A DNA stretch of 10,260 nucleotides from a virus (Duplodnaviria > Heunggongvirae > Uroviricota > Caudoviricetes): the IMG/VR virus record IMGVR_UViG_2667527849_000007; one strand, 5' to 3'. Position 1 is the first letter of the stretch; every line of letters begins with the position of its first letter. The notes beneath the pieces were generated by a model. It worked only from the letters and a program-made list of their open reading frames with translations, was not told the DNA's origin and did not search any database. The position numbers and the translations under genes were made by a program. Below, one piece after another: positions 1,670 through 10,260 of this stretch.

Positions 1670-2728
1670 GTGCGGGTATTACTTCGACCTGTTCTGGTAC
1701 CGGAACTCGGTCTGGTTATCGTTAAGCCAGGCCGTGAATCAATGTCAGCATTCCATAACGGCAGAATACTGGTGGAGCCGGAACCAAAAAGCATGCGTAA
1801 TCTGCCGTCCGGGGTCGTTCCTGCCGCTCGCCAGCCGCTGGTGGAAGACAAAACATTGCTGCCGTTTTTCAGTAACGCACGGGTGATTCGTGCTGCTGGT
1901 GGTGCTGGTGCATTGTCTGACTGGCTGTTGCGCCATATTAAATCCTGCCAGTGGCCACACGGCGATTATCATCACAGCGAAACCGTCATTCACCGTTATG
2001 GTACCGGCGCAATGGTGTTGTGCTGGCACTGCGACAACCAGCTGCGTGACCAGACATCCGAATCACTCGAGCAACTTGCTCATCAAAACCTGTCAGCATG
2101 GATGATTGACGTCATCGGTCACGCAATAAGCGGTACGCAGGAGCGTGAATTATCTCTGGCTGAATTATCCTGGTGGGCGGTCCGCAATCAGGTGGCGGAC
2201 GCGCTACCGGAAGCGGTATTACGTCGTTCGCTGGGGTTGCGTGCGGAAAAAATTCGCTCTGTGTACAGTGAAAGCGACATCATACCGGGAGAGCAGACAG
2301 CCACCAGCATACTGAAGCAGCGCACAAAAAATATTGCGTTACTGCCTCACGTCCACCAGCAACAGAACCCACCACAGGAAAAGACGGTGGTCAGCATTGC
2401 CGTTGATCCGGAGTCACCGGCTCAGTATCTCCAGCGCCAGAAATCACAACGGGAAGAGATGCCTGTATACACGCGCTGGGTAAAAACGCAGAAATGCATG
2501 ACGTGTGGCAATCAGGCAGATGATCCGCATCACATCATTGGTCATGGACTGGGAGGGATGGGAACAAAGGCTGATGATTTGTTTGTTATTCCGTTATGCC
2601 GTAAATGCCGTAACGAACTACATGCCGGAGTAAAAGATTTTGAAGAGAAACACGGCAGTCAGCTGTTGTTGCTGATTCGTTTTTTAATGCACGCGAGAAA
2701 TTCGGGTGTTCTGAAGTGGAAAGCATAA
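1670..2728 (+). CDS. DUF968-family phage protein (YdfU-like) with a C-terminal CxxC...HH...CxxC...H motif
   Basis: 352-aa ORF. C-terminus CMTCGNQADDPHHIIGHGLGG...CRKCRNELH resembles an HNH/zinc-ribbon signature. Gene order (this gene, rusA, Q) matches the ydfU-quuQ neighbourhood of Qin-type prophages as I recall it. Start uncertain: GTG 1670 sits only 4 nt after GGAGG; an in-frame ATG at 1742 is an alternative. Confidence 0.7.
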   Translation: MRVLLRPVLVPELGLVIVKPGRESMSAFHNGRILVEPEPKSMRNLPSGVVPAARQPLVEDKTLLPFFSNARVIRAAGGAGALSDWLLRHIKSCQWPHGDYHHSETVIHRYGTGAMVLCWHCDNQLRDQTSESLEQLAHQNLSAWMIDVIGHAISGTQERELSLAELSWWAVRNQVADALPEAVLRRSLGLRAEKIRSVYSESDIIPGEQTATSILKQRTKNIALLPHVHQQQNPPQEKTVVSIAVDPESPAQYLQRQKSQREEMPVYTRWVKTQKCMTCGNQADDPHHIIGHGLGGMGTKADDLFVIPLCRKCRNELHAGVKDFEEKHGSQLLLLIRFLMHARNSGVLKWKA

Positions 2729-3109
2729 ATGACCGAGCGCATAGAATTTGTTTTACCTTACCCGCCGACGGTGAACACTTACTGGCGTCGTCGTGGCAGC
2801 ACATATTTTGTATCAAAAGCCGGGGAGCGTTATCGCCGGGCAGTGGCGCTTATTGTTCGCCAGCAGCGGCTGAAATTAAGCCTGTCCGGAAGGTTGGCAA
2901 TAAAAATTATTGCAGAACCACCGGATAAGCGCCGCCGTGACCTGGACAATATTCTGAAAGCGCCGCTGGATGCGCTGACGCATGCGGGGTTGCTAATGGA
3001 CGATGAGCAGTTTGATGAAATCAATATCGTTCGTGCTCAGCCAGTATCTGGTGGACGTCTGGGGGTGAAGATTTATCCCATAATGCTTGAAGGGCAGGTC
3101 AAAAAATGA
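2729..3109 (+). CDS. rusA: RusA-family Holliday junction resolvase (crossover junction endodeoxyribonuclease)
   Basis: 126 aa. LPYPPTVNTYWRRRG N-terminus and acidic PDKRRRDLDN and LMDDEQ motifs fit the RusA family. ATG abuts the DUF968 stop; stop overlaps the Q start. Confidence 0.85.
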   Translation: MTERIEFVLPYPPTVNTYWRRRGSTYFVSKAGERYRRAVALIVRQQRLKLSLSGRLAIKIIAEPPDKRRRDLDNILKAPLDALTHAGLLMDDEQFDEINIVRAQPVSGGRLGVKIYPIMLEGQVKK

Positions 3110-3497
3110 AACTGGAAGATTTACCGAAATACTACTCCCCAAAATCCCCCGGCCTGACTGATGCATCGGCCTCAACGTCGAAAGATGCGCTGAGTATCAC
3201 TGATGTGATGGCCGCGCAGGGCATGACACAGAATCGGGCTGAGATGGGGGTTTCTGCGTTCCTTGGGAAAATGGGCATTAGTATGAATGACAGAGAGCGG
3301 GCAACAGAATTGCTGACAGAATATGCACTCAGTCGGTGTGATCGCGTGGCGGCGTTAAGAAAACTCCCGGCAGAAATAAAACCGGCAGTGATGCGTATTA
3401 TGGCTTCGTATGCGTTTGAAGATTATGCCCGTAGCGCGGCGAGCAAAAAACAGTGCCCCTGCTGTCACGGAAAAAAATTTATTGAAAGCGAGGTTTT
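3106..3497 (+). pseudogene. Q-like antiterminator, 5' fragment (codons 1-129) truncated by IS2
   Basis: First 129 codons give the same protein as the intact Q at 7002-7823. Sequence diverges after 3497 into IS2 antisense. The track ORF 3106..3870 is a Q/IS2-antisense chimera. Confidence 0.75.
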
Positions 3498-3498
3498 A

Positions 3499-3915
3499 AT
3501 CACAGCAGAACTCGAACCCGTCAGAGCACCATCGCTGATTGCTTTCTTTCACGGCCACTCTGCCTGTATGTGCCCGTTTCGATGGCGGTACAGCAGGTTT
3601 TCGCTCAAGCAACAGCGCATTCTGGCGCATGATCCGGTAAACACGTTTGGCATTGATCGCAGGCATACCATCAAGTTCTGCCTGTCTGCGAAGCAGCGCC
3701 CATACCCGACGATAACCATACGTGGGCAGCTCTCCGATAACATGGTGTATACGGAGAAGCACATCCGTATCATCAGTGTGACGACTGCGGCGGCCATCCA
3801 TCCAGTCATCGGTTCGTCTGAGAATGACGTGCAACTGCGCACGCGACACCCGGAGACAACGGCTGACTAAGCTTACTCCCCATCCCCGGGCAATAAGGGC
3901 GCGTGCGCTATCCAC
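3499..3915 (-). pseudogene. insD: IS2 InsD (transposase OrfB), N-terminal 139 codons only
   Basis: Minus-strand translation [41 protein letters not shown]...[11 protein letters not shown] matches the IS2 InsD N-terminus. Full InsD is about 300 aa; the reading frame ends at the IS2/Q junction. Confidence 0.8.
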
Positions 3916-4238
3916 TTTTTTGCCCGTCCATATTCAACGGCTTCTTTGAGGAGTTCATTTTCCATCGTTTTCTTGCCGAGCAGGCGCTGGAGTTCTTTAA
4001 TCTGCTTCATGGCGGCAGCAAGTTCAGAGGCAGGAACAACCTGTTCTCCGGCGGCGACAGCAGTAAGACTTCCTTCCTGGTATTGCTTACGCCAGAGAAA
4101 TAACTGGCTGGCTGCTACACCATGTTGCCGGGCAACGAGGGAGACCGTCATCCCCGGTTCAAAGCTCTGCTGAACAATTGCGATCTTTTCCTGTGTGGTA
4201 CGCCGTCTGCGTTTCTCCGGCCCTAAGACATCAATCAT
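3873..4238 (-). CDS. insC: IS2 InsC (transposase OrfA), 121 aa
   Basis: Minus-strand translation [56 protein letters not shown]... matches IS2 InsC from memory. The track ORF 3873..4283 carries a 15-codon upstream extension. Confidence 0.85.
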
Positions 4239-4464
4239 CTGTACTCCAATGACTAGTCTAAAAACTAGTATTAAGACTATCACTTATTTAAGTGATACTG
4301 GTTGTCTGGAGATTCAGGGGGCCAGTCTACGGACATTTTCTGCCTGTGGACCAGGAAAGTGCACGGGTGCTTTCCACTCCCATGAAGCCCGGCAATCCGC
4401 GCAGATACAGTAATAAACGAACTGACAGCAGTAAGATGGAGCGTTTCTTTTGAACAACCAGACA

Positions 4465-4707
4465 ATGACTTTTACCTCTGAACAATTGCGTAAACACGCG
4501 CAGGAAATGCTGCGTCATGCTGAACAACTCGAAAAAACGGGCATAACAAAAGACGCTATCCGTAAAGATATGGTACCCGCGCTTCGGGAACTGATGCAGG
4601 CGAAGCATCGCGCACAGAAAGCAGTAGATGAGCTGGTGGACTGTGTGGCAGAGCTGGAAACCAGAGTCGGAAAGTTTGAAAAACTGGTGCAGGAGGTGCT
4701 GCGCTGA
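4465..4707 (+). CDS. hypothetical small phage protein, 80 aa (85 aa if the TTG at 4450 is used)
   Basis: ORF track 4450..4707. Likely start is ATG 4465 (MTFTSEQLRKHAQEM...). N-terminus resembles the ORFs at 137-304 and 301-645. Stop overlaps the rusA' start (TGATG). Confidence 0.5.
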   Translation: MTFTSEQLRKHAQEMLRHAEQLEKTGITKDAIRKDMVPALRELMQAKHRAQKAVDELVDCVAELETRVGKFEKLVQEVLR

Positions 4708-5081
4708 TGCGCCATGAGTTTATTTTACCTTATCCGCCGACGGTGAATACTTACTGGCGACGTCGTGACAACACATATTTTGTATCAAAAGCCGGTGAGC
4801 GTTATCGCCGGGATGTGGCGCTTATTGTCCGTCAGCAGCGACTGAAATTAAGCCTGTCCGGAAGACTGGCGATAAAGATTATTGCAGAGCCACCGGATAA
4901 GCGCCGTCGTGACCTGGACAATATCCTGAAAGCACCACTGGATGCACTGACACATGCGGGAGTGTTAATGGACGATGAGCAGTTTGATGAAATCAATATC
5001 GTTCGTGCTCAGCCAGTATCTGGTGGACGTCTGGGGGTGAAGATTTACCCCATAATGCATGAAGAGCAGGTCAAAAAATGA
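4707..5081 (+). CDS. rusA: RusA-family Holliday junction resolvase, divergent second copy
   Basis: 124 aa, roughly 90% identical to the 2729-3109 copy, with a different N-terminus (MRHEFILPY vs MTERIEFVLPY) and scattered substitutions at both nucleotide and protein level. Confidence 0.8.
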   Translation: MRHEFILPYPPTVNTYWRRRDNTYFVSKAGERYRRDVALIVRQQRLKLSLSGRLAIKIIAEPPDKRRRDLDNILKAPLDALTHAGVLMDDEQFDEINIVRAQPVSGGRLGVKIYPIMHEEQVKK

Positions 5082-5823
5082 AACTGGAAGATTTACCGAA
5101 ATACTACTCCCCAAAATCCCCTTGCCTGACCGATGCATCGGCCTCAACGTCAAAAGATGCGCTGAGTATCACTGATGTGATGGCCGCGCAGGGCATGACA
5201 CAGAATCGGGCTGAGATGGGGTTTTCTGCGTTCCTGGGGAAAATGGGCATCAGTATGAATGACAGGGCGCGGGCAACAGAATTACTGGCAGATTATGCAC
5301 TCAGTCGGTGCGATCGTGTGGCGGCGTTGAGAAAACTTCCGGCAGAAATAAAACCGGTAGTGATGCGCATTATGGCTTCGTACGCTTTTGAGGATTATGC
5401 CCGCAGCGCAGCGAGTAAAAAGCAGTGCCCTTGTTGCTATGGGGAAAAATTTATTGAAAGCGTAGTTTTTACAAACAAGGTCCAGTATCCGGATGGTAAG
5501 CCGCCGGTATGGGCAAAGTGTACGAAAGGTGTGTATCCGTCTTACTGGGAAGAATGGAAAAAAGTCAGGGAGGTGGTAAAAGTTGCCTGTCCGGAGTGTG
5601 GCGGAAAGGGTGAGGTTTCCACCGCCTGTAAGGATTGCCGTGGGCGTGGTGTCGCCATTCATCGTGAAGAGTCGGTAAAACGTGGTATGCCTGTTATCAG
5701 AGACTGCCAGCGTTGTGGTGGTCGTGGCTATGAAAGACTACCATCAACGGAGGCATTTAATGCTATATGCGAGGTGACAAACCAGATAACACGCGCGTCA
5801 TGGGAAAAAACAGTTAAGAAATT
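5078..5823 (+). pseudogene. Q-like antiterminator, mosaic copy truncated at codon ~248 by fusion to the middle of a DUF968 gene
   Basis: The 5' half differs from the other Q copies (SPCLTD, ARATELLADYA, CYGEK); the 3' half from about 5481 is identical to copy 3. At about 5821-5825 the sequence switches to DUF968 sequence (matching 1929 onward), giving the track ORF 5078..6001 an out-of-frame 59-aa tail. The last ~25 Q codons are missing. Confidence 0.6.
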
Positions 5824-6624
5824 ATGCGCCATATTAAATCCTGCCAGTGGCCACACGGCGATTATCATCACAGCGAAACCGTCATTCACCGTTATGGTAC
5901 CGGCGCAATGGTGTTGTGCTGGCACTGCGACAACCAGCTGCGTGACCAGACATCCGAATCACTCGAGCAACTTGCTCATCAAAACCTGTCAGCATGGATG
6001 ATTGACGTCATCGGTCACGCAATAAGCGGTACGCAGGAGCGTGAATTATCTCTGGCTGAATTATCCTGGTGGGCGGTCCGCAATCAGGTGGCGGACGCGC
6101 TACCGGAAGCGGTATTACGTCGTTCGCTGGGGTTGCGTGCGGAAAAAATTCGCTCTGTGTACAGTGAAAGCGACATCATACCGGGAGAGCAGACAGCCAC
6201 CAGCATACTGAAGCAGCGCACAAAAAATATTGCGTTACTGCCTCACGTCCACCAGCAACAGAACCCACCACAGGAAAAGACGGTGGTCAGCATTGCCGTT
6301 GATCCGGAGTCACCGGCTCAGTATCTCCAGCGCCAGAAATCACAACGGGAAGAGATGCCTGTATACACGCGCTGGGTAAAAACGCAGAAATGCATGACGT
6401 GTGGCAATCAGGCAGATGATCCGCATCACATCATTGGTCATGGACTGGGAGGGATGGGAACAAAGGCTGATGATTTGTTTGTTATTCCGTTATGCCGTAA
6501 ATGCCGTAACGAACTACATGCCGGAGTAAAAGATTTTGAAGAGAAACACGGCAGTCAGCTGTTGTTGCTGATTCGTTTTTTAATGCACGCGAGAAATTCG
6601 GGTGTTCTGAAGTGGAAAGCATAA
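5824..6624 (+). pseudogene. DUF968 (YdfU-like) 3' fragment, C-terminal 266 codons with a junction-created ATG
   Basis: Protein identical to the C-terminal portion of the 1670-2728 product. The ATG at 5824 exists only because the junction reads ATTATGCGCC where the full copy reads CTGTTGCGCC. Retains the CxxC/HH motif region. Whether it is translated is unknown. Confidence 0.6.
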
Positions 6625-7393
6625 ATGACCGAGCGCATAGAATTTGTTTTACCTTACCCGCCGACGGTGAACACTTACTGGCGTCGTCGTGGCAGCACAT
6701 ATTTTGTATCAAAAGCCGGGGAGCGTTATCGCCGGGCAGTGGCGCTTATTGTTCGCCAGCAGCGGCTGAAATTAAGCCTGTCCGGAAGGTTGGCAATAAA
6801 AATTATTGCAGAACCACCGGATAAGCGCCGCCGTGACCTGGACAATATTCTGAAAGCGCCGCTGGATGCGCTGACGCATGCGGGGTTGCTAATGGACGAT
6901 GAGCAGTTTGATGAAATCAATATCGTTCGTGCTCAGCCAGTATCTGGTGGACGTCTGGGGGTGAAGATTTATCCCATAATGCTTGAAGGGCAGGTCAAAA
7001 AATGAAACTGGAAGATTTACCGAAATACTACTCCCCAAAATCCCCCGGCCTGACTGATGCATCGGCCTCAACGTCGAAAGATGCGCTGAGTATCACTGAT
7101 GTGATGGCCGCGCAGGGCATGACACAGAATCGGGCTGAGATGGGGGTTTCTGCGTTCCTTGGGAAAATGGGCATTAGTATGAATGACAGAGAGCGGGCAA
7201 CAGAATTGCTGACAGAATATGCACTCAGTCGGTGTGATCGCGTGGCGGCGTTAAGAAAACTCCCGGCAGAAATAAAACCGGCAGTGATGCGTATTATGGC
7301 TTCGTATGCGTTTGAAGATTATGCCCGTAGCGCGGCGAGCAAAAAACAGTGCCCCTGCTGTCACGGAAAAAAATTTATTGAAAGCGAGGTTTT
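5825..7393 (+). repeat. direct repeat copy B, partner of 1929-3497
   Basis: See copy A. Its left boundary is the Q'/DUF968 fusion junction; its right boundary is where copy A is interrupted by IS2. Confidence 0.8.
6625..7005 (+). CDS. rusA: RusA-family Holliday junction resolvase, third copy, identical in protein to 2729-3109
   Basis: Identical 126-aa translation to copy 1, and the antisense shadow ORFs are also identical, implying nucleotide identity. Confidence 0.85.
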   Translation: MTERIEFVLPYPPTVNTYWRRRGSTYFVSKAGERYRRAVALIVRQQRLKLSLSGRLAIKIIAEPPDKRRRDLDNILKAPLDALTHAGLLMDDEQFDEINIVRAQPVSGGRLGVKIYPIMLEGQVKK

Positions 7394-7823
7394 TACAAAC
7401 AAGATCCAGTATCCGGATGGTAAGCCGCCGGTATGGGCAAAGTGTACGAAAGGTGTGTATCCGTCTTACTGGGAAGAATGGAAAAAAGTCAGGGAGGTGG
7501 TAAAAGTTGCCTGTCCGGAGTGTGGCGGAAAGGGTGAGGTTTCCACCGCCTGTAAGGATTGCCGTGGGCGTGGTGTCGCCATTCATCGTGAAGAGTCGGT
7601 AAAACGTGGTATGCCTGTTATCAGAGACTGCCAGCGTTGTGGTGGTCGTGGCTATGAAAGACTACCATCAACGGAGGCATTTAATGCTATATGCGAGGTG
7701 ACAAACCAGATAACACGCGCGTCATGGGAAAAAACAGTTAAGAAATTTTATGATGCGCTGGTGACCCGGTTTGATATTGAAGAAGCATGGGCTGAGCGGC
7801 AGTTAAAAAAGGTAACTAGGTAA
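7002..7823 (+). CDS. Q-like late-gene antiterminator (QuuQ/YdfT-like), the only intact copy, 273 aa
   Basis: N-terminus MKLEDLPKYYSPKSP... Carries CPCCHGKK plus three CxxCxGxG zinc-finger-like repeats (CPECGGKG, CKDCRGRG, CQRCGGRG). Lies directly upstream of a pR'-like promoter and tR'-like terminator and downstream of rusA, as expected for lambdoid Q. Family assignment is from memory. Confidence 0.7.
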   Translation: MKLEDLPKYYSPKSPGLTDASASTSKDALSITDVMAAQGMTQNRAEMGVSAFLGKMGISMNDRERATELLTEYALSRCDRVAALRKLPAEIKPAVMRIMASYAFEDYARSAASKKQCPCCHGKKFIESEVFTNKIQYPDGKPPVWAKCTKGVYPSYWEEWKKVREVVKVACPECGGKGEVSTACKDCRGRGVAIHREESVKRGMPVIRDCQRCGGRGYERLPSTEAFNAICEVTNQITRASWEKTVKKFYDALVTRFDIEEAWAERQLKKVTR

Positions 7824-7828
7824 CAAGG

Positions 7829-7856
7829 TTGATTTTTCCGGAATCTGTGGTAAATT
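7829..7856 (+). promoter_or_regulatory. candidate late promoter pR' (and qut region) immediately after Q
   Basis: TTGATT (7829-7834), 16-bp spacer, extended -10 TGgTAAATT (7848-7856). TAAATT is the -10 I recall for lambda pR'. Begins 6 bp after the Q stop. Confidence 0.5.
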
Positions 7857-7905
7857 CGTCATAACGATGGGCGTTTTATGCCTGACGTTAGAAGAGTTTC
7901 TACAA

Positions 7906-7927
7906 CCCGCCGCCGAGCGGGTTTTTT
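7906..7927 (+). terminator. tR'-like intrinsic terminator in the late leader
   Basis: Hairpin CCCGC-CGCCGA-GCGGG followed by TTTTTT, about 50 nt downstream of the predicted -10. Expected to be read through only by Q-modified RNA polymerase. Confidence 0.55.
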
Positions 7928-8047
7928 ATGACTGAAATCGCGTCAGTACAGTAAACGCGCTGGTGGCGGTGAATACCTGTCTTTCAGCTTGCTGGCTTTT
8001 TCGACAAGAGTTATTGGTGTGTCACGTTAACCGGAAAAGGAAAAGAC

Positions 8048-8245
8048 ATGCTAAAACAGCAGGATATGACAGAAACCGCCAGAGTGGTGTTTAATGAATT
8101 AAGCGTTACCGAACCGGCGACAGTCGGGGAGATAGCGCAGAATACTTACCTTTCACGCGAACGCTGCCAGTTAATACTGACCCAGCTGGTTATGGCGGGT
8201 CTGGCAGACTATCAGTTCGGTTGTTACAGACGCCTTCCGCAGTGA
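8048..8245 (+). CDS. small putative helix-turn-helix protein, 65 aa
   Basis: ORF track 8048..8245. AAGGA RBS 8-9 nt upstream of the ATG. Segment ATVGEIAQNTYLSRERCQLILTQL has an HTH-like pattern. The stop lies inside a terminator hairpin. Confidence 0.5.
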   Translation: MLKQQDMTETARVVFNELSVTEPATVGEIAQNTYLSRERCQLILTQLVMAGLADYQFGCYRRLPQ

Positions 8246-8255
8246 AGGCTTTTTT
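8232..8255 (+). terminator. intrinsic terminator overlapping the stop of the small HTH ORF
   Basis: Perfect 6-bp stem GCCTTC / GAAGGC with loop CGCAGT, followed by TTTTTT (8250-8255). Confidence 0.5.
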
Positions 8256-8272
8256 ATTTGTGGTAAATGGGC

Positions 8273-8303
8273 GGCTGGTGGGTGTTAGGGGCACCCACCA
8301 GCC
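8273..8303 (+). promoter_or_regulatory. perfect 12-bp inverted repeat (GGCTGGTGGGTG - 7 nt - CACCCACCAGCC) in the methyltransferase leader
   Basis: Arms and spacer read directly from the sequence. No U-tract follows, so it is not a canonical terminator. Could be an RNA stability or processing element or a protein-binding site. Confidence 0.35.
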
Positions 8304-8395
8304 ATCTGCTCATGCGTTGGGTTCACAAGCAAACCTCAGGCCCACTGCTTTGCGCAAAAGCAGAATGAGCCTATCAGAGACAGGCTTAATGATCC

Positions 8396-9454
8396 ATGCT
8401 TAATACTGTAAAAATATCCAGTTGTGAGTTAATCAACGCCGACTGCCTGGAATTTATCCGGTCGTTACCCGAAAATTCTGTTGACCTGATAGTCACGGAC
8501 CCGCCGTACTTTAAAGTGAAGCCTGAGGGCTGGGATAACCAGTGGAAGGGCGACGATGATTACCTGAAGTGGCTGGACCAGTGTCTGGCGCAGTTCTGGC
8601 GGGTGCTGAAACCTGCCGGAAGTCTTTACCTGTTCTGTGGTCATCGCCTGGCATCTGATATCGAAATCATGATGCGTGAACGCTTCAGTGTGCTGAACCA
8701 TATTATCTGGGCGAAGCCGTCCGGACGCTGGAACGGATGCAACAAGGAAAGCCTGCGGGCGTATTTCCCCGCCACAGAGCGCATTCTGTTCGCGGAACAT
8801 TATCAGGGGCCGTATCGTCCGAAAGATGCCGGGTATGCGGCGAAGGGCAGTGCACTGAAACAGCATGTGATGGCCCCGCTGATTTCTTACTTTCGTGATG
8901 CGCGAGCTGCCCTGGGGATAACGGCAAAACAGATTGCAGATGCCACAGGAAAGAAAAACATGGTGTCGCACTGGTTCAGTGCCGGTCAGTGGCAGTTGCC
9001 GAATGAGAGCGATTATCTGAAATTACAGGCGCTGTTTGCCCGGGTGGCAGAAGAGAAGCATCGGCGTGGTGAACTGGAAAAGCTCCACCACCAGCTGGTG
9101 GATACGTATACCTCACTGAACCGGCAGTATGCGGAGCTGCTGAGTGAATATAAACATCTGCGGCGGTATTTTGGCGTGACGGTGCAGGTGCCGTATACCG
9201 ATGTGTGGACGCATAAACCGGTGCAGTTCTATCCCGGGAAACATCCGTGCGAAAAACCGGCAGAAATGCTGCAGCAGATAATCAGCGCTAGCAGTCGTCC
9301 GGGTGACCTGATTGCAGATTTTTTCATGGGGTTGGGTTCGACAGTGAAAGCGGCACTGGCGCTCGGGCGTCGTGCAATTGGCGTTGAGCTGGAGACTGAA
9401 CGTTTTGAGCAGACGGTTCGGGAAGTACAGGATTTAGTCAGCCAGAACGGATGA
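8396..9454 (+). CDS. DNA methyltransferase, beta-class amino-methyltransferase (probable N6-adenine; DPPY motif), orphan
   Basis: 352 aa. Motif IV DPPY near the N-terminus (LIVTDPPYF) and an FxGxG AdoMet motif near the C-terminus (DFFMGLGST), the circular permutation typical of beta-class N6A/N4C methyltransferases. No restriction endonuclease gene adjacent. No obvious SD before ATG 8396. Confidence 0.85.
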   Translation: MLNTVKISSCELINADCLEFIRSLPENSVDLIVTDPPYFKVKPEGWDNQWKGDDDYLKWLDQCLAQFWRVLKPAGSLYLFCGHRLASDIEIMMRERFSVLNHIIWAKPSGRWNGCNKESLRAYFPATERILFAEHYQGPYRPKDAGYAAKGSALKQHVMAPLISYFRDARAALGITAKQIADATGKKNMVSHWFSAGQWQLPNESDYLKLQALFARVAEEKHRRGELEKLHHQLVDTYTSLNRQYAELLSEYKHLRRYFGVTVQVPYTDVWTHKPVQFYPGKHPCEKPAEMLQQIISASSRPGDLIADFFMGLGSTVKAALALGRRAIGVELETERFEQTVREVQDLVSQNG

Positions 9455-9494
9455 TATTGAAGAATTAATTACGCGTCGTTATTATGCGGCTCCC

Positions 9495-9570
9495 GGCCCT
9501 TTAGCTCAGTGGTGAGAGCGAGCGACTCATAATCGCCAGGTCGCTGGTTCAAATCCAGCAAGGGCCACCA
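9495..9570 (+). tRNA. ileZ: tRNA with CAT anticodon, most likely tRNA-Ile2 (lysidine-modified, reads AUA); tRNA-Met not excluded
   Basis: Hand-folded cloverleaf: acceptor GGCCCTT / AAGGGCC, D-stem GCTC/GAGC, anticodon loop CTCATAA, T-loop TTCAAAT, encoded CCA. Closely resembles E. coli ileX-type tRNA. Symbol by analogy with the ileZ-argN-argO cluster of Stx phages, from memory. Confidence 0.8.
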
Positions 9571-9577
9571 TCACATA

Positions 9578-9654
9578 CCGCCATTAGCTCATCAGGAAAG
9601 AGCGCCAGCCTTCGAAGCTGGCTGCGCGGGGTTCAAGTCCCCGATGGCGGTCCA
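9578..9654 (+). tRNA. argN: tRNA-Arg, anticodon TCG (reads CGA)
   Basis: Acceptor CCGCCAT / ATGGCGG, anticodon stem CCAGC/GCTGG, loop CTTCGAA, T-loop TTCAAGT, encoded CCA. Anticodon read by hand; symbol by analogy only. Confidence 0.75.
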
Positions 9655-9667
9655 TTATCTGCATCAT

Positions 9668-9744
9668 GCGTTGTTAGCTCAGCCGGACAGAGCAATTGCC
9701 TTCTAAGCAATCGGTCACTGGTTCGAATCCAGTACAACGCGCCA
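9668..9744 (+). tRNA. argO: tRNA-Arg, anticodon TCT (reads AGA/AGG)
   Basis: Acceptor GCGTTGT / ACAACGC, anticodon stem ATTGC/GCAAT, loop CTTCTAA, T-loop TTCGAAT, encoded CCA. Symbol by analogy only. Confidence 0.8.
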
Positions 9745-9758
9745 CACTTATTTTCCCT

Positions 9759-9784
9759 GGCTCGCTTTTGCGGGCCTTTTTTTT
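9759..9784 (+). terminator. intrinsic terminator after the tRNA cluster
   Basis: Hairpin GGCTCGC-TTTT-GCGGGCC (one G-U pair) followed by eight T, starting 15 nt after the last tRNA. Confidence 0.6.
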
Positions 9785-10260
9785 AAATGTCTCACAATTC
9801 AGACGGTTGACAGTTGTCTGTTTTGCGGGGAGTTTGTTAAAAGAAACTGGCATGGTGAATCCCCCTGTGCGGAGGGGCAATCAGCGAGTAGGTATATGGG
9901 ATAATCGCGGATTCAGGTGCTGGTACTGAATTCACCGGGAGGCACCCGGCATCATGCAATGGCACATAGCGCCACTCTCCAGCCCTCTCCGGAGGGGCTT
10001 TTCTGTGCCGGATACATCACAGTTTCTGGAACCTTAGGTACTACAGTATCAGTCAGGGTGCTATATTTTCAGATGTGATGAAAGCCTGTCAGCAGGCAGG
10101 GCGTATCGGAAATGACCCAGTAGAGAAAACGTTGACTCAGATACCGGTGCTGAGTTACCGGGAAACCGGCATCACATGACCGCTATCCTGAGGTGTACTG
10201 GCAATAGCGGACACTACCATTTGTTCTTTTTTTAAGCAGCCATCTGATGATATTTTTCCC

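Follow-up and report, generated by a model that had tools for sequence, protein, structure and literature searches.

The closest described relative of the gene considered here is M.EcoGII, a non-specific adenine methylase from a prophage of Escherichia coli O104:H4 (C227-11) whose lack of specificity has been measured (Murray et al., 2018; PMC5778455). According to the passages of that paper that deal with the enzyme, its activity was undetected in the lysogen, and clones expressing it constitutively grew slowly and were unstable, expression being deleterious. The authors propose that the methylase is switched on at induction and that restriction is thereby overcome, and they name phage 1720a-02 as the carrier of a very similar enzyme. 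Homologs at 92–93% similarity have been classed as 'nonspecific' by prediction (PMC6602927), and an abstract on M.EcoGII states that it also methylates RNA in vitro. Here, a member of this family is described in a 10,260-nucleotide (nt) stretch of DNA, called the window throughout at its full length, from the Caudoviricetes record IMGVR_UViG_2667527849_000007 of the IMG/VR database. The methylase gene (8396–9454, plus strand) is preceded on the same strand by a small open reading frame (ORF; 8048–8245) and by a conserved structured leader of about 140 nt (8258–8395). Judging from sequence, its product is likely to be an anti-restriction methylase that is reserved for induction by putative controls acting through transcription, the SOS response and the RNA leader.

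Other described systems offer partial parallels. The com-mom pair of phage Mu is an example of translational gating of a toxic DNA-modification enzyme. Like com-mom, the module in the window appears to hold a harmful adenine-modifying enzyme silent by way of an RNA leader, and relatives of its methylase carry a Com-like ORF. However, the window itself contains no Com ORF, Mom is not a PF01555 methylase, and the leader in the window is a far larger RNA with a three-way junction. Restriction-modification (R-M) systems controlled by C proteins, which are of the Xre type, likewise place a small protein of DNA-binding type next to a methylase with palindromes nearby. In the window, by contrast, the small protein is a predicted winged helix instead of an Xre-type helix-turn-helix (HTH), there is no nuclease, and the palindromes appear to act as RNA helices that persist in loci without the protein. 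In the Shiga toxin (Stx) 2a phage PA8, the small winged-helix protein PNB-2, encoded just upstream of the methylase M.EcoPA8orf6770P, forms a 1:1 holoenzyme with it and determines which substrate it modifies (Gong et al., 2023; PMC10810198). In both loci, the gene of a phage methylase directly follows that of a small winged-helix protein, whereas the PA8 methylase is an MT-A70 (DPPW) enzyme of the early region, PNB-2 has 143 residues, and no structured leader is reported for that system.

The Methylase and Its Position in the Late Operon

The methylase ORF encodes 352 residues and matches the N6_N4_Mtase family PF01555 (E 7.9e-42; 144 bits against a cut-off of 26.7). Its motifs follow the order of beta-class N6-adenine enzymes: DPPY (motif IV; residues 35–38, positions 8498–8509) is followed by a target-recognition region and then by FxGxG (motif I; near residue 310, positions 9323–9337), which lies in FFMGLG at residues 309–314. 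In a BLASTP comparison with M.EcoGII, 324 of 349 residues are identical (93%) with 2 gaps; some of the 25 differing residues are machine-reading errors in the reference, and one genuine difference is FMGLG in the window enzyme against FMGSG in M.EcoGII. M.EcoGII and M.EcoGI are likewise prophage-borne, beta-class PF01555 enzymes of about 350 residues (Murray et al., 2018; PMC5778455). PADLOC assigned the ORF to MTase_II (4.6e-163), and beyond this generic model and orphan-methylase models it found no defense-system partner. Relatives in the PDB are ordinary beta-class enzymes such as RsrI and CcrM, and a protein 100% identical to the methylase is present on an IMG/VR contig. The neighbors of the gene are Q, tRNAs, an esterase and lysis genes, and no restriction endonuclease gene is linked to it.

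A preliminary description of this DNA, made from the sequence alone, had read the gene as an orphan beta-class methylase between Q and the tRNAs, a reading borne out by the PF01555 match, the order of the motifs and the lack of an adjacent nuclease gene. It had also held that the specificity could not be read from sequence, which proved too cautious. Because the window enzyme is 93% identical to M.EcoGII, whose non-specificity was measured, its specificity can be approached by homology, and it is predicted to methylate adenines in any sequence context. The homology search that the description called for placed the methylase in the M.EcoGII family and matched the small ORF to phrog_331, with sub-threshold winged-helix matches in Pfam. 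The gene belongs to an established type, for which published work has already put forward a likely function. Production on induction only and protection of phage DNA, both suggested in the preliminary description, are plausible and agree with the published passages on M.EcoGII (PMC5778455). Those passages describe no upstream ORF, leader or LexA box, and the searched text of the same paper contains no mention of tRNA or antitermination.

The surroundings of the gene suggest when it would be expressed. Directly 5′ of the module, on the plus strand, lies an intact gene for the Q antiterminator (7002–7823; PF03589 Antiterm, 1.6e-53; phrog_127, 6.2e-112), the third copy in the window. Directly after Q, which fits the standard lambdoid layout, there is a pR′-like late promoter with an extended −10 element (7829–7856; TTGATT, 16-nt spacer, TGgTAAATT), called by eye. 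An intrinsic terminator detected by the terminator scan follows as a candidate tR′ (7904–7930; 7-bp stem at 7904–7923 plus a T-run). A second intrinsic terminator (8232–8255; hairpin 8232–8249 plus a T-run) overlaps the stop codon of the small ORF, as had been noted before, and homologous loci, even where the small ORF is missing, have an equivalent of its hairpin 5′ of the leader. The methylase would then be the first cargo of the late operon, behind pR′, the tR′-like terminator and the second terminator, a position whose transcription would require induction and an RNA polymerase modified by Q to resist terminators.

This position is conserved well beyond the window. The 1.67-kb module of small ORF, leader and methylase was matched in 3177 of 5426 complete E. 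coli genomes, at up to 10 places per genome, and in 254 phage records, most of them Stx2-converting. The phage matches include Stx2a phages, phiP27 and 1720a-02, which is 94.6% identical to the window in nucleotides over small ORF, leader and methylase; in Stx2c phages, homology is found only from window position 8265 onward. The gene order in phiP27 is a Q-like gene, a nuclease-family gene, the small ORF, the methylase, tRNAs, stx2e and lysis genes, and in E. coli O121 it is Q, the small ORF, the methylase, tRNAs, an esterase, holin and lysozyme. With each species represented by a single genome, a scan yielded 80 loci in Enterobacterales, and methylase identity in these was 61–97%. In five distant lineages (Salmonella, Klebsiella, Photorhabdus, Xenorhabdus and Providencia), Q lies upstream of the module and a lysozyme gene downstream in five of five cases, and these Q proteins belong to three unrelated families (PF06530, PF06323 and PF03589). 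Thus, the module appears as the first late-operon cargo whatever the Q system. It is mainly from this conserved position, evidence of a purely positional kind, that we infer Q-dependent and induction-dependent transcription of the methylase. Relatives of M.EcoGII sit in most E. coli genomes and in many Stx phages, in some of which the late transcript must cross the methylase gene to reach stx.

The Leader and the Palindrome in the First Codons

The leader is more strongly conserved than the genes that flank it. Over 465 pairs, mean pairwise nucleotide identity is 81.8% in the leader, compared with 71.7% in the methylase coding sequence and 66.6% in the small ORF. The gap between the stop codon of the small ORF and the methylase ATG is 150 nt in the window and 147–154 nt across Enterobacteriaceae; the 140-bp leader of the preliminary description therefore holds when counted from the end of the terminator (about 140 nt) and not for the stop-to-ATG gap. 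Neither the window nor the leader-bearing homologs have a Shine–Dalgarno (SD) sequence before the methylase ATG, in keeping with that description. A 155-nt stretch folds beyond chance (z = −3.46) and contains a three-way junction formed by P1 (8268–8272/8340–8344), H1 (8273–8303) and P2 (8305–8314/8324–8333), with two further hairpins on its 3′ side, P3 (8345–8351/8357–8363) and P4 (8366–8371/8383–8388). H1 is a perfect 12-bp inverted repeat (8273–8284/8292–8303), and the near-palindrome CTGCTTTGCGCAAAAGCAG lies at 8345–8363; both had been reported earlier and are present.

Substitutions among homologous leaders preserve this pairing. In an unfitted MAFFT alignment of 43 leaders, 88% of cells are paired against 32–41% in slid controls, and double changes occur in 13 pairs against 4–7. 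A covariance model, built from the MAFFT leader alignment with a hand-drawn structure, found a single copy in the window (8258–8407; 131.5 bits). In an alignment of 58 distinct leaders that was fitted to this model, and whose counts are thereby tilted toward the structure, 84.5% of cells are paired (35–43% in slid controls), compensatory changes are seen in 35 of 40 pairs (13–19 in slid controls), and covariation scores 0.345, compared with 0.131 in shuffles. Pairing of P1 is complete in this set (100%), with four of its five pairs compensated, and the corresponding counts are 10 of 12 in H1, 10 of 10 in P2 and 7 of 7 in P3. H1 also recurs with wholly different, still complementary arms, for instance CUACAGUAUG/CAUACUGUAG and GACUGUUAAGAG/CUCUUAACAGCC. 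A pattern scan of viral contigs found the methylase directly 3′ of the leader, in the same orientation, in 115 of the 116 instances with enough flank; the lone exception led to a divergent clade, and a scan seeded with the divergent enzyme of locus L194 gave far more varied leaders. A viral scan with the methylase alignment returned near-identical loci only and added no diversity.

Rfam 15 gave nothing at E up to 1 for the sense strand of the window leader, and searches of four diverse loci at the gathering score gave nothing either. By these null results, AgvB, AsxR and the riboswitch families, including those for S-adenosylmethionine (SAM) and S-adenosylhomocysteine (SAH), were ruled out for the leader. 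A literature search on the leader sequence also found nothing relevant. The conserved leader RNA, well supported as a sequence feature, is apparently undescribed. Two other readings of its 5′ part were considered and rejected. A sigma-70 promoter at the leader start (TGTGGTAAAT, resembling the −10 element of pR′) is not conserved in hexamer or spacing, and the promoter scan was negative there. A leader peptide from the AUG at 8267, which reads MGGWWVL* in many loci, is conserved neither in frame, nor in length, nor in its two Trp codons, and no SD precedes it. The AUG itself is invariant and opens an upstream ORF over H1 (8267–8368; 33 codons in the window), where a ribosome would disrupt both of the folds that the leader can adopt.

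The second of these folds is an alternative to the junction. An extended hairpin can form around H1 when UGUGG (8259–8263) pairs with UCACA (8323–8327) and AUGGGC (8267–8272) with GCUCAU (8308–8313); in a third helix (8338–8345/8365–8372), GGCCCAC (8339–8345) can then pair with the 5′ arm of P4, leaving the sequence immediately 5′ of the start codon free. The three helices are paired in 95–98%, 91% and 83% of cases, respectively, and the variation is mostly wobble-compatible. The two adjacent mismatches of P2 in the junction fold are exactly the bases that are paired in the alternative fold. Constrained energies are near equal (−48.9 versus −47.6 kcal/mol), and across 46 sequences the difference is 1.3 ± 4.9 kcal/mol. 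Two mutually exclusive conserved folds would be the signature expected of a switch.

Another element, not listed in the preliminary description, lies immediately downstream of the start. The LexA-box-like palindrome TACTGTAAAAATATCCAGTT occupies codons 3–9 of the methylase (8404–8423, plus strand) and agrees with the SOS-box consensus TACTGTATATATATACAGTA at 16 of 20 positions; the pattern ACTGT-N9-CAGT has this single match in the window against 0.09 expected. Among the SOS boxes of E. coli is that of uvrB, AACTGTTTTTTTATCCAGTA. Like E. coli LexA boxes, the methylase palindrome has the form CTGT-N8-CCAG/ACAG with an AT-rich spacer; unlike them, it is intragenic, lies about 140 nt from the leader start and has no recognizable promoter overlapping it. 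Among homologs, 45 distinct start regions have a CTG-N10-CAG box at +8 relative to the ATG and one other has it at +10, while the remaining 29 box matches fall upstream of a less exactly placed start. No tabulated box other than those 46 falls in the start codon or directly behind it, and the offset is therefore constant in loci with an exactly placed start, as it is in every leader-bearing locus that is in register. The arms of the box are invariant, Thr always being ACT and Ser always AGT or AGC, while the residues of the spacer vary (K/N/Y, I/L, S/N), which argues for a constraint on a DNA or RNA palindrome and not on the peptide. A literature search combining LexA, methyltransferase and antiterminator gave nothing relevant. 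This intragenic SOS box is apparently new, and as a feature of the sequence it is well supported.

Proposed Gating of the Methylase and Competing Explanations

In the account favored here, the enzyme would hypermethylate replicating phage DNA before packaging and so give broad protection from restriction in the next host, as has been proposed for M.EcoGII (PMC5778455). The box in codons 3–9 might allow LexA to block read-through transcription until LexA is cleaved in the SOS response, although this step is a guess. The leader, about 140 nt long, devoid of an SD and endowed with two folds, probably controls translation or processing of the methylase message. A bolder and clearly more tentative proposal is that the leader represents an undescribed class of cis-regulatory RNA switch, which together with the intragenic LexA box would license translation of the methylase only in induced cells. 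Candidate triggers could be a metabolite, SAM or SAH for instance, either protein of the module, methylase or winged helix, or the kinetics of folding during transcription by Q-modified polymerase. If the leader is a switch, it would constitute a new regulatory RNA class present in thousands of sequenced genomes, and where stx lies downstream it might influence the message that runs on into stx. As a reagent, M.EcoGII is in wide use for chromatin mapping and RNA methylation, and we know of no explanation given so far for how cells survive with a methylase of every adenine. The conserved leader and the intragenic SOS box offer concrete, testable answers to that question.

Several observations weigh against this account. 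The pR′-like promoter scores 8/12, under the scan threshold of 9/12. An intragenic LexA site is unusual in position, and no promoter that the intragenic box could repress was found, which is why the roadblock idea is a guess. In the leader, P4 is only 68% paired in the set of 58 and varies in register. Pairing counts are inflated in two of the alignments, A3 and A6, because the covariance model was used to fit them; the unfitted MAFFT alignment gives a weaker, still significant signal. Xenorhabdus and Photorhabdus have a shorter leader, composed of a long hairpin and a hairpin with a CAGAG loop, and no LexA box. The M.EcoGII reference sequence was taken from a machine-read PDF of the supplement to PMC11551740 and contains a few errors. 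Counts of G-U against A-C combinations, tried as a test of which strand folds, did not decide the matter: they stand at 112 versus 176 overall, and in P2 alone at 11 versus 107, which corresponds to better pairing on the antisense strand.

The small ORF is where a different view of the locus begins. It encodes a 65-residue protein (8048–8245; phrog_331, 1.4e-37) and by its sequence is a real gene, with an SD-like AAGGAA upstream and 334 database homologs, often named "TrmB family transcriptional regulator" by NCBI. Pfam gave sub-threshold winged-helix matches only (TrmB 0.0026, MarR_2 0.036, DprA_WH 0.039) and no Xre/HTH_3 (PF01381-like) match. The best AlphaFold (AF2) model is a canonical winged helix in the order H-S-H-H-wing (pLDDT, the predicted local distance difference test, 88.8; the other four models 58–66), and Foldseek related it to winged-helix domains of O-methyltransferases and of MarR/IclR regulators (E 3e-3 to 5e-2). 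The earlier impression of an HTH-like protein agrees with this prediction. Of 76 informative genome loci, about 58 have a homolog immediately 5′ of the methylase, as do 103 of 112 viral loci, and the identities of such homologs are 39–100%; the ORF is absent from about a quarter of the species-representative genome loci and a tenth of the viral-contig loci, where unrelated cargo genes or an insertion sequence (IS) element lie upstream of the leader.

The preliminary description likened this protein to a controller (C) protein, the palindromes at 8273–8303 and 8345–8363 to its DNA operators, and the whole to an R-M circuit minus its nuclease. A predicted DNA binder directly 5′ of the methylase in most loci, and palindromes that do exist, speak for such an arrangement; yet C proteins belong to the Xre type, of which the protein shows no trace in Pfam, there is no nuclease gene nearby, and the palindromes are situated 3′ of the small ORF and vary in ways that keep pairing instead of sequence, with 10 of the 12 pairs of H1 double-changed. 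Moreover, of 16 genome loci without the small ORF, 13 still have the leader, which together with the start of Stx2c homology at 8265 argues that the protein is dispensable and makes a controller circuit highly improbable. The protein could instead be a subunit or partner that restrains the methylase or retargets it, for instance toward RNA or phage DNA, as PNB-2 does with the MT-A70 enzyme of PA8 (PMC10810198). That precedent, the ability of M.EcoGII to methylate RNA as well (abstract), and the tight synteny kept across Enterobacterales while the small protein diverges to 39% identity are consistent with a partnership. However, the protein was rejected as a PNB-2 homolog (E 0.14), the methylase belongs to PF01555, M.EcoGII alone is fully active and non-specific in the published passages on it (PMC5778455), about a quarter of genome loci do without the small ORF, and a terminator separates the two genes, so that a role of this kind seems rather unlikely. 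The winged-helix protein is better regarded as a frequent but dispensable accessory and no C protein, perhaps one that works with the methylase or with the leader.

Another possibility is that the leader acts as DNA or on the other strand, as a Chi-containing site of recombination or RecBCD protection, as a cruciform, or as template for a silencing antisense RNA to the methylase message. Chi, GCTGGTGG (8274–8281), is part of the 5′ arm of H1, and its complement is part of the 3′ arm, in a window with 13 Chi sites against 0.41 expected; the tandem C-A/A-C mismatches of P2 become G-U pairs on the antisense strand, where a terminator-like hairpin (8386–8368) and a weak Rfam match to P26 (E 0.038, under the gathering score) are also found. 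However, many variants of H1 keep the helix without Chi, the mismatched positions of P2 are Watson–Crick paired in 95–98% of cases in the alternative sense-strand fold, and P4 favors the sense strand with 64 G-U against 23 A-C. The element lies always directly 5′ of the methylase in the same orientation, and inspection by eye revealed no convincing promoter on the minus strand of the first 65 nt of coding sequence, nor an antisense promoter with a workable spacer near the LexA box. A function as DNA or on the antisense strand is accordingly hard to favor and distinctly unlikely. A last question is whether the enzyme serves mainly against restriction at all, or rather acts on the host or on the program of the phage, for example by reprogramming the induced cell epigenetically, setting how often induction occurs, methylating RNA or aiding recombination. 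A different methylase of an Stx phage alters spontaneous induction and virulence through rRNA methylation (PMC10810198), M.EcoGII acts on RNA in vitro according to the abstract cited above, and the surrounding region is very rich in Chi. However, expression at the start of the late operon, when the cell is already bound for lysis, suits the modification of progeny DNA, the role put forward for M.EcoGII is protection from restriction, and no evidence for an alternative function was found in this methylase family; a principal role other than anti-restriction is unlikely. The anti-restriction methylase gated at induction is the reading retained here.

Related Loci and the Rest of the Window

Relatives of the methylase carry other elements at the same place. 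In a sister clade (L288–L301 and L308), there is no leader and no internal box; a consensus-like LexA box, ACTGTATAAAAATACAGT, lies about 150–200 nt upstream of the methylase, accompanied by a conserved element of another kind, GCCTTGAGTACCTGAGACCC...GGAGAGGAAGC, and the methylase is preceded by an ordinary SD. Another group (L194, L285–L287, L314, L345 and L350) has a Com-like zinc-ribbon ORF directly 5′ of the methylase, matching PF10122 just under the cut-off of 22.9 bits (E 2.2e-4, 21.1 bits; 10775–11070 in L194). The region 5′ of this ORF holds the 5′ domain of the leader in L194 and L285–L287, and a LexA-like box in L314, L345 and L350. Since the internal box, the upstream box and the Com-like ORF differ by clade, independent lineages appear to have attached different induction-linked locks. 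Such variety fits the toxicity of the methylase and would parallel the control of Mu mom by Com.

Downstream of the methylase, the window encodes three tRNAs on the plus strand (9495–9744; anticodons CAU, UCG and UCU), found by ARAGORN and matched by Rfam, followed by an intrinsic terminator from the terminator scan (9759–9786, plus strand). The sole promoter-like site in the window that passed the promoter scan (9457–9485; TTGAAG, 17-nt spacer, TATTAT) lies just 5′ of the first tRNA, and the tRNAs may therefore also be transcribed without pR′. Just after the tRNA cluster, there is a strong Rfam match to STnc100, a prophage small RNA (sRNA) (9821–10010; 123.6 bits, E 5e-28), and a second, weak match at 10049–10237 (21.8 bits, under the gathering score). 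A 2026 preprint links STnc100 to the PasD sRNAs. Between Q and the first terminator (7824–7930), transcription from pR′ would yield a short RNA analogous to the 6S RNA of lambda or to StxS; the same stretch gave a weak Rfam match to Trp_leader (E 0.27) that is probably due to chance.

Upstream of the module, positions 1929–7823 form a rearranged triple ninG-rusA-Q module. Within it, 1929–3497 is 100% identical to 5825–7393, and 4709–5823 is 94% identical to 6633–7747. The first Q copy is interrupted by an 849-bp fragment of IS2 (about 3499–4347), the middle one is fused to ninG sequence, and only the third is intact; coverage of the IS2 junction stays below 80% in every complete E. coli genome. 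Beside its PF03589 domain, the intact Q has DnaJ-type CXXCXGXG zinc-finger repeats (PF00684; 30.1 bits against a cut-off of 32.7). The expected number of Chi sites given above was obtained from shuffles of the 10.26 kb. Sites on the plus strand include 692, 1837, 1895, 4632, 7959, 8274 and 9094, and those on the minus strand 2301, 2353, 6197, 6249, 8295 and 9088. Two pairs of Chi sites fall in a duplicated segment, and one Chi with its complement makes up the arms of hairpin H1.

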